From Escherichia phage BP32, in sequence record OR906198.1: DNA of 64,000 bases. One strand, 5' to 3'. Position numbers and translations under genes: made by a program. This document shows positions 2,120 through 26,875 of this stretch, one piece after another (positions within the stretch are counted from its first letter, which is position 1; the number at the start of each line of letters is the position of its first letter). The notes beneath the pieces were generated by a model that saw only the letters and a list, made by a program, of their open reading frames with translations, was not told where the DNA came from and made no database searches.

Positions 2120-2595
2120 TTGTAAAATATATCAAGGGCGATATTGTCGCCCTATTTCTTCAAGGTAATATTATTGCGCACGGGTGCAATTGTTTTCATA
2201 CAATGGGCTCTGGCGTAGCAGGTCAATTAGCAAGAGCCTATCCCAAAATTTTAGAAATAGATAAAACCACTACTGAGTACGGTTCTCGTGATAAATTAGG
2301 CGATATGTCTATTGTTTTTAAACATAATCCTACGGGATTTGGTATATGCTATAACTTGTATACGCAATACGAACCGGGTCCTAATCTTGATTATGGTGCT
2401 TTAGTAAACTGCATGATAGAATTAAATCTACAGGCAGAGACCCTTTTGTTTAAACCAGTAATTTATATTCCACGCATAGGTTGTGGTATTGCTGGTGGTG
2501 ATTGGGATAAGGTTTCTAAATTAATCGACATGTTTACTCCTGATATTGATTTAATAGTGGTGGATTATGAAAGTACATTACCCGCATCCGTTTGA
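2116..2595 (+). CDS. macrodomain protein (ADP-ribose binding/processing fold)
   Basis: GDI..(10)..IIAHGCNCFHTMGSGVAGQL and later IGCGIAGGDWDKV align by eye to the macrodomain NAAN...GGGV and G-x-G-x-G motifs. Confidence 0.6.
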   Translation: MIVKYIKGDIVALFLQGNIIAHGCNCFHTMGSGVAGQLARAYPKILEIDKTTTEYGSRDKLGDMSIVFKHNPTGFGICYNLYTQYEPGPNLDYGALVNCMIELNLQAETLLFKPVIYIPRIGCGIAGGDWDKVSKLIDMFTPDIDLIVVDYESTLPASV

Positions 2596-2779
2596 TCCTA
2601 AAAACAAAGTGGAAATTATTCGTCAATGGGAACGCATTTGCCGTACTAAATGTCCAATTAATAGTCCTCATGATGTAGATAAAGACTATATAGGAACATT
2701 CGTTGAATATACCTTTATTGATAAGAAAGGTCGTAAACAGCACGTAGAAGAATATTGCTTAAAGGTTACATGGTTATGA
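2567..2779 (+). CDS. hypothetical protein
   Basis: 70 aa ORF overlapping upstream gene end; no recognisable motif. Confidence 0.45.
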   Translation: MKVHYPHPFDPKNKVEIIRQWERICRTKCPINSPHDVDKDYIGTFVEYTFIDKKGRKQHVEEYCLKVTWL

Positions 2780-2982
2780 GCCAAACTAGTATTCTTAAAA
2801 ATGCTCATTGTGAAAAGTGTAAATGGCCGGTTGTTTTTGCTTTATGTAATGATGAAATGGCTTGTGATTTCGATTATTGGTGCTATTGTTCTAATAAAGG
2901 ATGCATCAATCATAAAGGTGAAGGATTTTATTCAGGATTTTATCCTTATCCTGATTTCGTTAAAGAAGGTAAACCAAAATGA
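2770..2982 (+). CDS. small Cys-rich protein, possible metal-binding
   Basis: AAGG RBS 7 nt upstream of ATG 2770; CxxC plus several further Cys in 70 aa. Confidence 0.5.
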   Translation: MVMSQTSILKNAHCEKCKWPVVFALCNDEMACDFDYWCYCSNKGCINHKGEGFYSGFYPYPDFVKEGKPK

Positions 2983-3155
2983 ATGATGATTTAAAATATC
3001 AATTATTACGTGAACTTGATGTTTTGATTGAACTTTCTGCACAAAAAGGATTTATAATTGGATCGGGTCAAAAAGACCCCAACGGTCATTCAATCGTAGC
3101 GGTTATGAATCAGAAACGAGTCATTTTAAAACTTTTGGGGATTGACATACTGTGA
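2979..3155 (+). CDS. hypothetical small protein (58 aa)
   Basis: ATGA start/stop overlap with upstream ORF; below the 60 aa cutoff of the ORF track. Confidence 0.4.
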   Translation: MNDDLKYQLLRELDVLIELSAQKGFIIGSGQKDPNGHSIVAVMNQKRVILKLLGIDIL

Positions 3156-3337
3156 GCCTAAGCAAAGAACAAAAAGATAAATTGTTTGAGCTTATCCATG
3201 AACTTCTAGATGAGCATACAGAAGCAAACACCTTTTATGATGAATACGGCCCGCTATCTCCCGAACAGCAGGAAGAATTTGCTGATCGGTTTGATAAGAA
3301 AGAAAATGAATTAATAGCTTATGTGAATACGCTTTAA
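3152..3337 (+). CDS. hypothetical acidic protein (61 aa), possible GTG start
   Basis: GTGA overlap with upstream stop; highly acidic. Confidence 0.4.
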   Translation: MSLSKEQKDKLFELIHELLDEHTEANTFYDEYGPLSPEQQEEFADRFDKKENELIAYVNTL

Positions 3338-23809: not shown

Positions 23810-23826
23810 GAGCCTCGGCTCCTATA
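23808..23826 (+). terminator. terminator-like hairpin
   Basis: aggagcc-tcg-ggctcct; weak T-run. Confidence 0.35.
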
Positions 23827-23875
23827 TTGCTTTATAAATTTTTGGTAAAATAAACCAAAACAATGAGGATATTAA

Positions 23876-25078
23876 ATGAAAGTATGCATTTTTATGGCTC
23901 GAGGTCTTGAAGGTTGTGGTGTAACTAAATTTTCTCTTGAGCAACGTGATTGGTTTATTAAAAATGGTCATGAAGTAACTTTGGTTTATGCTAAAGATAA
24001 ATCATTTACTCGTAATTGCGCGCATGATTATAAGTCATTTTCAATTCCAGTTTTATTGGCAAAAGAATACGATAAAACACTTAAGCTGGTAAATGATTGT
24101 GATATTCTAATTATCAATTCAGTTCCTGCTACTTCAGTAGAAGAAGACACTATTAATAACTATAAAAAAATTATTGATAACATTAAACCTTCGGTTCGTG
24201 TTGTAGTTTATCAGCATGACCATTCTTCTCTTTCTTTGCGCCGAAATTTGGGATTAGAAGAAACTGTTCGTCGAGCTGATGTTATTTTTAGCCATTCTGA
24301 TAATGGTGATTTTAATAAAGTTCTGATGAAAGAATGGTATCCGGAAACTGTTTCTCTGTTTGATGATATTGAAGAAGCACCGACCGTATATAACTTTCAG
24401 CCTCCTATGGATATTGCGAAGGTTCGATCAACCTACTGGAAAGATGTTTCTGAAATTAACATGAATATCAACCGTTGGATTGGTCGTACTACTACATGGA
24501 AAGGCTTTTATCAGATGTTTGATTTTCACGAAAAACATCTTAAACCTGCAGGACTAAGTACTATTATGGAAGGTCTGGAACGTTCTCCAGCTTTCATTCC
24601 TATTAAAGAAAAAGGAATTCCATACGAGTATTATCGTCTTCATCAAGTAGACCAAATTAAAATTGCTCCTAATTTGCCGACGCAAATTCTCGACCGTTAT
24701 GTAAATAGCGAAATGCTTGAACGCATGAGTAAATCCGGATTTGGTTATCAGCTGAGTAAGTTGGACAAAAAATATCTACAACGTTCTTTAGAATATACTC
24801 ATCTCGAGCTTGGTGCATGTGGAACAATTCCGGTATTTTGGAAATCTACGGGCGAAAATTTAAAATTCCGTGTTGATAACACTCCGTTAATTTCTCATGA
24901 TAGCGGTATCGTTTGGTTTGATGAAAATGACATGGAATCAACATTTGAACGTATTAAAGAACTGTCATCTGACCGAGCTCTTTATGACCGCGAACGTGAA
25001 AAAGCTTATGAATTTTTGTATCAGCATCAAGATTCAAGCTTCTGCTTTAAAGAACAGTTTGACATTATTACAAAATAA
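23876..25078 (+). CDS. a-gt: DNA alpha-glucosyltransferase
   Basis: 400 aa; sequence recognised as T-even alpha-gt. Confidence 0.95.
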   Translation: MKVCIFMARGLEGCGVTKFSLEQRDWFIKNGHEVTLVYAKDKSFTRNCAHDYKSFSIPVLLAKEYDKTLKLVNDCDILIINSVPATSVEEDTINNYKKIIDNIKPSVRVVVYQHDHSSLSLRRNLGLEETVRRADVIFSHSDNGDFNKVLMKEWYPETVSLFDDIEEAPTVYNFQPPMDIAKVRSTYWKDVSEINMNINRWIGRTTTWKGFYQMFDFHEKHLKPAGLSTIMEGLERSPAFIPIKEKGIPYEYYRLHQVDQIKIAPNLPTQILDRYVNSEMLERMSKSGFGYQLSKLDKKYLQRSLEYTHLELGACGTIPVFWKSTGENLKFRVDNTPLISHDSGIVWFDENDMESTFERIKELSSDRALYDREREKAYEFLYQHQDSSFCFKEQFDIITK

Positions 25079-25079
25079 A

Positions 25080-25094
25080 GGGCTTCGGCCCTTT
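25080..25094 (+). terminator. terminator-like GCTTCGGC hairpin
   Basis: gggc-ttcg-gccc with a short T-run. Confidence 0.5.
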
Positions 25095-25254
25095 AGCTTT
25101 ATACGGAGTTTGATATAATGATATTCCTTGGATATGTGATACTTTTTCTAGCGTTTTATCTATTCACTAGAGCATGTTGGATTGGGTTCTTTAGCACCCC
25201 AGATGGATTTATTTCAATAATTTTATTTTGCATTTCAATGACGGTTCTTGATAT

Positions 25255-25878
25255 ATGAAAAAATATATAACTTATTTAACAATATATAGTGGAGATAAAC
25301 TTCCTCCTTTTTATATTGGATCTACATCTTTAGATAGGCATTTAGCCGGATATCATGGATCAGTTTTATCTAAAAAGTATAAGAAAATTTATAATGAAGA
25401 ACTTTCAAATAACCCACATTTATTTGATTCATGCATTTTAGATGAATTTGATACGCGCGAAGAAGCTATTAAATGCGAGCTATATTATCAACGTTTGCAT
25501 GATGCGGTTAAAAATCCATTATTCTTTAATATGTCATATGCTGCTCCAAAAGGTTCATTTGGAAGAGATATTAAAGGACAAAATCATCCATTATATGGTT
25601 CTCATAATTGTAAAGGAAACATACATTCACATGACCCATTAACAGGAAAATCTGCCTTTTTACCGTATATTCCAGAAGGTTATGTAAAAGGAAGGTCAAA
25701 TAAATTTAAAGCTTCATCACATAATAAAGGTAAAAAATGGTATAATAACGGAGTTAAGCAAATGTTATGTCATGAACCTCCTGGTCCTGAATGGACAAAG
25801 GGAAAAATTAAAGAACTAGTTTCAAAAGCAGCTAAATTAGGATGGAAAAGACACCATGAAAATACTAAACTTGGGTGA
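25255..25878 (+). CDS. GIY-YIG family homing-endonuclease-like protein (Seg/I-TevI-like)
   Basis: YLTIY...(8)...FYIGSTS, then R..H, then FDSCILDEF...E aligning by eye with the I-TevI catalytic domain; 207 aa. Confidence 0.7.
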   Translation: MKKYITYLTIYSGDKLPPFYIGSTSLDRHLAGYHGSVLSKKYKKIYNEELSNNPHLFDSCILDEFDTREEAIKCELYYQRLHDAVKNPLFFNMSYAAPKGSFGRDIKGQNHPLYGSHNCKGNIHSHDPLTGKSAFLPYIPEGYVKGRSNKFKASSHNKGKKWYNNGVKQMLCHEPPGPEWTKGKIKELVSKAAKLGWKRHHENTKLG

Positions 25879-26875
25879 TTGGCATTTAGGCGTTAAAGCT
25901 GATGATGAGTGGATTCGCGGTATTCAAATTGATGGAATTAAGCAAGCGATAGAATATTCTAAGAAAAATGGAATTACGGTATGGATTCAATACGGTGATA
26001 TTTTTGATGTACGAAAAGCGATCACGCATAAAACTATGGAGTTTGCTCGTGAAATAGTTCAAATGCTTGATGGCGCTGGAATCACATTACATACTATTGT
26101 AGGAAATCACGATCTCCACTATAAAAATGTAATGCATCCAAACGCTTCTACTGAGCTTTTGGCTAAATATCCTAATGTTAAAGTATATGATAAGCCTACT
26201 ACAGTAGATTTTGACGGATGTTTGATTGATTTAATTCCTTGGATGTGTGAAGAAAATACTGGTGAAATTCTTGAACACATCAAAACTTCATCTGCTTCTT
26301 TTTGTGTTGGTCACTGGGAGCTGAATGGATTTTATTTTTATAAAGGAATGAAATCTCACGGTCTTGAACCTGATTTCCTTAAGACTTATAAAGAGGTTTG
26401 GTCTGGTCACTTCCATACTATCTCTGAGGCTGCTAACGTCAAATATATTGGGACACCATGGACACTAACTGCAGGTGACGAGAATGACCCTCGCGGGTTC
26501 TGGATGTTTGATACAGAAACAGAACGAATGGAATTTATTCCAAACAACACTACCTGGCATCGTCGAATTCAATATCCATTTAAGGGAAAAATTGACTATA
26601 AAGATTTTACAAATCTATCAGTACGTGTTATAGTAACTGAGGTAGACAAAAATCTGACGAAGTTCGAATCTGAACTAGAAAAAGTTGTGCATTCATTACG
26701 AGTTGTGTCAAAGATTGATAACTCTGTTGAGTCAGATGATAGTGAAGAAGTTGAAGTTCAATCTCTTCAGACGTTGATGGAAGAATATATTAATGCAATT
26801 CCAGACATCACTGATTCTGATCGCGAAGCACTTATTCAATATGCAAATCAGTTATATGTAGAGGCAACACAATGA
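25856..26875 (+). CDS. 47: recombination endonuclease subunit (Mre11-like)
   Basis: 339 aa; phosphoesterase motifs GDWHLG, GDIFD, GNHD. Confidence 0.95.
   Translation: MKILNLGDWHLGVKADDEWIRGIQIDGIKQAIEYSKKNGITVWIQYGDIFDVRKAITHKTMEFAREIVQMLDGAGITLHTIVGNHDLHYKNVMHPNASTELLAKYPNVKVYDKPTTVDFDGCLIDLIPWMCEENTGEILEHIKTSSASFCVGHWELNGFYFYKGMKSHGLEPDFLKTYKEVWSGHFHTISEAANVKYIGTPWTLTAGDENDPRGFWMFDTETERMEFIPNNTTWHRRIQYPFKGKIDYKDFTNLSVRVIVTEVDKNLTKFESELEKVVHSLRVVSKIDNSVESDDSEEVEVQSLQTLMEEYINAIPDITDSDREALIQYANQLYVEATQ

Follow-up and report, generated by a model that had tools for sequence, protein, structure and literature searches.

The closest described systems are the free-standing GIY-YIG homing endonucleases of phage T4, SegA to SegF and SegG (gene 32.1), which spread by intronless homing. 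The characterised free-standing Seg enzymes cut hundreds of base pairs from their own genes (PMC2988022), and it is well known that T4 relatives differ in which free-standing homing endonucleases they carry (PMC2988022, PMC2993671). SegH and Hef are homing endonuclease genes described from the nrd region of some T-even relatives (Sandegren et al. 2005, cited in PMC2988022). I-TevI, the endonuclease of the T4 td intron (PDB 1LN0, 1MK0), is encoded within its intron, and a further group, which includes Yersinia phage TG1 gp009 (annotated "GIY-YIG homing endonuclease") and its counterparts in phages HX01 and Bp7, lies upstream of the gene for the large subunit of topoisomerase II.

We analysed a 64,000-nucleotide stretch of Escherichia phage BP32 (OR906198.1), referred to below as the window, which contains a Tequatrovirus (T4-like) segment with the gene order 55, a-gt.5 to a-gt.2, a-gt, 47.1, an inserted open reading frame, 47, 46.2, 46.1 and 46. 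The inserted ORF is an uncharacterised new Seg-like endonuclease gene, a selfish phage gene of a common type that in itself will not surprise a specialist; a search of the literature uncovered no paper in which an endonuclease at the 47.1/47 site is named or characterised, which is not proof that none exists. Like the T4 seg genes it is free-standing and intergenic beside an essential DNA-metabolism gene, encodes about 200 residues, of which the N-terminal part is a GIY-YIG domain and the C-terminal part presumably binds DNA, and is sporadic among close relatives, with the donor apparently protected by polymorphism in the target gene rather than by interruption of the site. Unlike them it occupies the 47.1/47 locus, which is unoccupied in T4, is only distantly related in sequence to SegG, and has its stop codon 23 nt inside the downstream gene. 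The target proposed for it, at most about 20 bp from the insertion, is also atypical of the characterised Seg enzymes with their cuts hundreds of base pairs away (PMC2988022). It resembles SegH and Hef in sitting at a locus that T4 fills differently and in the turnover of endonuclease genes between close relatives, although those two occupy different loci in the nrd region. Unlike I-TevI, the window ORF is not intron-encoded. The features of the locus, in window coordinates, are as follows.

23876..25078: a-gt (Pfam AGT, E 2e-236)
25076-25095, + strand: terminator-like hairpin of a-gt
25096-25119, + strand: T4 middle-promoter-like GCTT(N14)TATAAT, a consensus match only
25118..25258, + strand: gene 47.1, 46 aa, predicted membrane protein (phrog_6693, E 1.5e-31; 100% identical to T4 gp47.1)
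25255..25878, + strand: free-standing Seg-like GIY-YIG homing endonuclease gene, ATG start, 207 aa
25255..25261, + strand: left ATGAAAA copy of the 7-bp direct repeat that bounds the insert
25255..25530, + strand: N-terminal GIY-YIG catalytic domain, aa 1-92, with signature residues Y7, Y20, G22, R28, E75 and N92
25567..25599, + strand: NUMOD3-like motif DIKGQNHPLYG, aa 105-115, which opens the linker/DNA-binding region
25600..25842, + strand: C-terminal presumed DNA-binding region, aa 116-196, two beta-hairpin modules with a conserved NKGKKWYNNG
25856..25862, + strand: right ATGAAAA copy, the start of gene 47
25856..26875, + strand: gene 47, SbcD/Mre11-like recombination nuclease subunit (Metallophos)
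25864..25873, + strand: four silent substitutions in gene 47 codons 3-6 (nt +9, +10, +15 and +18), the putative target region and putative immune allele

An earlier, sequence-only reading had proposed a 207-codon homing endonuclease gene between a-gt and gene 47 that runs 23 nt into the latter. The ORF is present as described, with an ATG start on the + strand, and so is the overlap (25856-25878), which encodes the last endonuclease residues, HENTKLG. Its placement stands on the right, directly upstream of gene 47, but on the left gene 47.1 intervenes and the ORF does not follow a-gt directly. The ORF is not a chance frame, since its protein is already present in the public databases (the exact match in GenBank is a hypothetical protein of phage vB_EcoM_SA20RB), matches PHROG 10820 at E 2e-93, has more than 170 homologues and evolves at a low dN/dS (see below).

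The boundaries of the insertion are precise. In T4 gene 47.1 abuts gene 47 directly, with the TGA of the former overlapping the ATG of the latter and no inserted gene, in agreement with the expectation that T4 has no endonuclease here. In the window the same TGA is overlapped by the ATG of the endonuclease gene, which thus starts at the position of the T4 gene 47 start, while gene 47 starts within the 3′ end of the ORF. Alignment to the T4 junction gives an insert of 601 bp with ATGAAAA at both ends. Codons 7-10 of gene 47 (GDWH) form phosphoesterase motif I.

Assignment of the product to the GIY-YIG nuclease family is clear from the predicted fold and from the family, and weak in the sequence signal of the window protein. 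An AlphaFold (AF2) model has a mean pLDDT of 82.6, above 92 over residues 1-90, and its elements follow the order beta-beta-alpha-alpha-beta-alpha of the GIY-YIG fold, a three-stranded sheet with helices. The three best Foldseek matches in the PDB are entries for the I-TevI catalytic domain (probability 0.93-1.00, E 0.02-0.1); the fourth, at E 2.1, is about a hundredfold worse, and later matches are other GIY-YIG nucleases. A BFVD fold search returned many viral relatives, none of them with names. I-TevI is thus the nearest solved structure, and SegG the nearest T4 relative by sequence profile, being picked up by the family profile at E 1e-6 among 390 ORFs, with the common motifs E..YQ, NP.[YF]FN and G..HP.

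Direct sequence searches give less. Pfam PF01541 (GIY-YIG) scores 19.9 bits over aa 4-84 of the window protein (E 9e-4), below its gathering cut-off of 22.6, and Pfam NUMOD3 is not detected in the window protein; among 40 homologues the GIY-YIG model matches 15 (E <= 0.01) and NUMOD3 19, and one homologue, P0065, exceeds the GIY-YIG gathering score with 25.0 bits. PDB sequence and profile searches with the window protein and its family produced no relevant match, and an NCBIfam search of the window protein no family. The sequence-only reading had aligned the ORF by eye with the catalytic domain of I-TevI. That alignment lacks statistical support as such, since neither BLASTP of the protein nor hhalign of the family alignment matches the catalytic domain significantly; the only segment that hhalign matches is NUMOD3-like (I-TevI SGENNSFFNHKHS), weakly, at 10% probability. 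The identity that the alignment was meant to convey is nevertheless borne out by the fold and by the Pfam matches of the homologues. In the C-terminal half, the motif at aa 105-115 lines up with the first of the NUMOD3 repeats in those relatives that score above the threshold of Pfam PF07460, and the model predicts beta-hairpins with strands at 123-126/133-136 and 161-164/169-172. Neither a zinc finger nor a helix-turn-helix was detected in the window protein, a further difference from I-TevI.

The signature residues are largely retained. Y7, Y20, G22, E75 and N92 are invariant across 40 homologues, and their proposed equivalents in I-TevI, paired by position within secondary-structure elements, are Y6, Y17, G19, E75 and N90. 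The catalytic Tyr and Glu foreseen from the sequence are therefore conserved, whereas the Arg is present in the window protein as R28 (counterpart of I-TevI R27, on helix alpha-1) in a column where family members have R, K, N, Q or E, which leaves the role of R28 as the catalytic Arg uncertain. The helix that bears it is also two residues shorter than in I-TevI. It may be that the active site is of a variant kind in this family and does not require the canonical Arg.

These results bear on the names under which the protein is filed. "HNH endonuclease" is the label of PHROG 10820 and of many RefSeq/GenBank and Pharokka-style records, "hypothetical protein" is used elsewhere, and members of the UniRef cluster are variously named HNH endonuclease, putative homing endonuclease and GIY-YIG domain-containing protein. 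Taken at their word, PHROG 10820 and the records that agree with it would make the ORF an HNH endonuclease, but Pfam contains no HNH family that matches the window protein at E up to 1, all matches of the predicted fold are to GIY-YIG nucleases, the fold is not the beta-beta-alpha-metal one that carries His/Asn/His catalytic residues, and the relatives match Pfam GIY-YIG and NUMOD3. We reject this reading, which has next to no chance of being right; the database label is wrong.

The insert is present in 68 of the 524 phage records that share its flanks, or about one in eight T4-like coliphages, with collinear flanks and precise boundaries as expected of a free-standing mobile gene. The remaining records that span the site, among them T4, T2 and RB51, match as two abutting pieces and have an empty site; comparison of the a-gt/47 junction in related phages thus shows the ORF to be sporadic, and hence not universal in the T-even phages. 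Carrier counts were drawn from GenBank phage records, since IMG/VR gave no more than 28 gene 47 loci, with no Tequatrovirus carrier among them.

Intact Tequatrovirus copies from five genomes give dN/dS values of 0.04-0.08 among themselves and about 0.11-0.19 against Dhakavirus copies; one intact pair differs at 17 synonymous and 6 non-synonymous positions. Such mostly synonymous divergence indicates purifying selection on the protein. Other copies are decayed, with a 124-nt internal deletion in KNP1/KNP5 and a 1-nt deletion in KMB22. In Klebsiella phage KPV15 (L031 2494-3204) the homologue that precedes gene 47 appears as three small annotated ORFs, of which two bear the label "HNH endonuclease", and gene 47 is annotated with a later start; this fragmented homologue is probably a decaying copy.

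The ORF might instead be a domesticated or inactive GIY-YIG relic, retained for the translation signals or coupling of gene 47 or as a DNA-binding regulator. The variable Arg column and the sub-threshold Pfam score would agree with this, as would the position of the gene 47 start inside the ORF, through which simple deletions could harm gene 47 expression. However, the low dN/dS extends over the whole protein including the nuclease domain with its five invariant residues, 87% of close relatives do without the gene, precise loss is viable, and decayed copies occur beside intact ones as expected of a mobile element and not of a required gene. We therefore consider a relic very unlikely.

We compared 1,300 nt on each side of the insertion point in 7 carriers and 13 empty Tequatrovirus genomes, setting aside SHFML-26, which is empty with a carrier allele, to leave 12 empty genomes. 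Of the 2,600 flank positions 377 are variable, and fixed differences between carriers and empty genomes occur only at gene 47 nt +9, +10, +15 and +18. All four are silent, with ATT TTA AAT TTA in T4 and ATA CTA AAC TTG in the carriers. Searches of phage records with short junction queries gave the following counts.

Carrier junctions: carrier-type allele 66, T4-type allele 1
Empty junctions: carrier-type allele 9 (8 phages), T4-type allele 437

Fisher's exact test on this table gives p = 5e-72, a value that describes the table only and overstates independence, as the records are phylogenetically related. The lone carrier with a T4-type allele is Escherichia phage ERS-1 (PP337211.1, L047 1340-2210), an UNVERIFIED record in which the endonuclease gene has several frameshifts; single-base indels lie at homopolymer runs in both the gene and its flanks. 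The frameshifts may thus be sequencing errors rather than decay, which makes ERS-1 weaker as the single exception.

Apart from these positions, empty genomes show hardly any variation in the first 35 nt of gene 47. Of 477 records that match a 54-nt T4-type query containing this segment, 442 are at least 99% identical to the query. The segment is also identical in another genus (L013, L015 and L016) in which the gene 47 protein is only 72-73% identical. Dhakavirus provides a second comparison, where five carrier records have ATT CTT AAT ACG and 22 empty records ATA TTA AAC ACA, with no exceptions. The changes in codons 3 and 5 run in the opposite direction to those in Tequatrovirus, which argues against a directional effect such as better translation and suggests that it is difference from the resident target that matters. 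Carriers thus differ from empty genomes at the putative target sequence, as expected of Seg-type immunity by polymorphism. We infer from these alignments that codons 3-6 of gene 47, just upstream of the GDWH codons, are what the enzyme recognises and that it probably cuts there or close by; the silent changes in these codons would make carriers immune.

All four silent changes are no more than 18 bp from the insert, and tight linkage to a single donor haplotype could give the perfect association without any role in immunity; they could also be the end of a co-converted donor tract. The enzyme would then be an active Seg-type endonuclease whose cut site lies elsewhere, for example in a-gt/47.1 or at a point hundreds of base pairs inside gene 47, in the manner of SegF and SegG. 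The distant cuts of known free-standing endonucleases (PMC2988022) lend weight to this, as does the difficulty of separating positions so close to the insert from it by recombination, and at +124/+125 all 7 carriers have GT whereas 9 of 12 empty genomes have AC. Yet over 1,300 nt to each side fixed differences between carriers and empty genomes are confined to these four positions, four substitutions packed into 10 nt are unusual in a segment that is otherwise near-invariant even in another genus, and the same codons differ in the independent Dhakavirus comparison. We consider a distant cut site unlikely.

Our preferred reading, to which we give a probability of roughly 0.7, is that the ORF encodes an active free-standing Seg-type GIY-YIG homing endonuclease that targets codons 3-6 of gene 47 and to which carriers are immune through silent changes. 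The protein would begin with a GIY-YIG nuclease domain, continue with a NUMOD3-like linker and end in a region that binds DNA, and would be transcribed and translated within the 47.1-47-46 unit. In a mixed infection of a carrier and an endonuclease-free relative the enzyme would cut the relative's DNA at or close to codons 3-6, the putative recognised sequence being ATG AAA ATT TTA AAT TTA GGT GAT TGG, and repair of the double-strand break from the carrier genome would copy the 601-bp insert into the cut genome. The four silent changes would spare carriers from cleavage of their own DNA.

Eight phages combine an empty site with the carrier allele. One of these, SHFML-26, also has flank alleles at -105 and +156 that are otherwise found in carriers only, a pattern consistent with a carrier ancestor having lost the insert precisely, for which deletion between the ATGAAAA repeats would be the simplest route. 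Such a deletion, from ATGAAAA to ATGAAAA, would recreate the empty site exactly. Invasion, purifying maintenance, decay, clean loss and, on the immunity proposed here, residual immunity are all represented in one phage population. In SHFML-26 (Shigella phage; L034 3419-3900), moreover, 46.1 is followed immediately not by gene 46, as in the window and T4, but by a different ORF annotated "homing endonuclease", apparently at a second site of this operon into which endonuclease genes insert.

A broader proposal, for which we see even odds, is that the family is specialised in the first few codons of an essential gene. It would take over the position of the start codon and end inside the gene, with a target at most about 20 bp from the insertion and four silent changes for protection, and ATGAAAA would allow clean excision to yield immune endonuclease-free genomes.

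Dhakavirus (IME08, QL01) and other T4-like contigs have homologues, with about 61-64% amino acid identity, directly upstream of gene 47. The Dhakavirus insert replaces 47.1, so its left boundary differs, whereas its right boundary at the gene 47 ATG is the same as in Tequatrovirus. Members of the sister subfamily upstream of the topoisomerase II large-subunit gene overlap the start of that gene by 8 nt (2498-3181 in both L032, Yersinia phage TG1, and L033, phage HX01), and their catalytic domains are 45-70% identical to that of the ORF. Like the ORF they lie directly upstream of an essential gene and overlap its start; unlike it they end in a different C-terminal region, which contains bona fide NUMOD3 repeats, and have another target gene. 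The DNA-binding region has been exchanged as a module. A comparison of carriers with empty sites yielded no empty allele for this sister subfamily, all 15 matching records carrying the gene.

Combinations of catalytic domains with different C-terminal modules are typical of GIY-YIG homing endonucleases. Residues 116-196 are specific to the subfamily upstream of gene 47, and different C-terminal regions are found in the topoisomerase-upstream relatives and in one IMG/VR contig (L026 2249-3004). The gene on this contig still precedes gene 47, with a 4-nt overlap at the start of the latter; the first ~165 residues of its product are nearly identical to the Dhakavirus copies and are followed by an unrelated, longer C-terminal region, in what appears to be a swap of the DNA-binding module. 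Two paralogous family members (P0048 and P0065), with catalytic domains 42-54% identical, are present on a single 120,510-bp contig labelled Candidatus Izemoplasma sp. MAG. Either the family reaches beyond the T4-like coliphages, or this contig from a Tenericutes-like MAG is a phage.

The window differs from T4 in its other mobile genes. T4 mobB is absent between a-gt.2 and a-gt (23810-23875), and tblastn of the 64-kb window revealed no homologue of T4 mobB, mobC, mobE, segA (with its C-terminal 78 aa as the query), I-TevI or beta-glucosyltransferase. The set of mobile endonucleases in the window is therefore different from that of T4, and there is no b-gt.

The endonuclease gene lies downstream of the terminator-like hairpin of a-gt and of the middle-promoter-like GCTT-N14-TATAAT, and a promoter and a terminator are annotated in the nearly identical records OL960581 and OL960580. 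From its arrangement the gene would be co-transcribed with 47 and 46 from this promoter-like site. The TATAAT -10 element (25114-25120), which is a consensus match only, overlaps the ATG of 47.1, and transcripts starting inside 47.1 could express the endonuclease and gene 47 but not 47.1. A scan for sigma-70 promoters found nothing above shuffle expectation. Hairpin-based translational control is known for some T4 endonucleases. When the RNA around the T4 junction and around the starts of the endonuclease gene and gene 47 was folded, no structure did better than those of shuffled sequences (z +1.0 to +1.6), and so there is no evidence for such control here.

Mislabelling of these genes as HNH or hypothetical is widespread in phage records, RefSeq included. 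The comparison of carriers with empty genomes yields a precise prediction, with codons 3-6 of gene 47 as the target and four named silent bases as the source of immunity. If the family is specialised in the first codons of an essential gene, its geometry would resemble that of intron-encoded enzymes, unlike that of the characterised free-standing Seg enzymes. Where therapeutic T4-like phages are mixed, the gene could skew how the 46/47 region is inherited. With intact, decayed and cleanly lost copies together with putatively immune empty sites, the several hundred Tequatrovirus genomes constitute a natural data set for the life cycle of a homing endonuclease.
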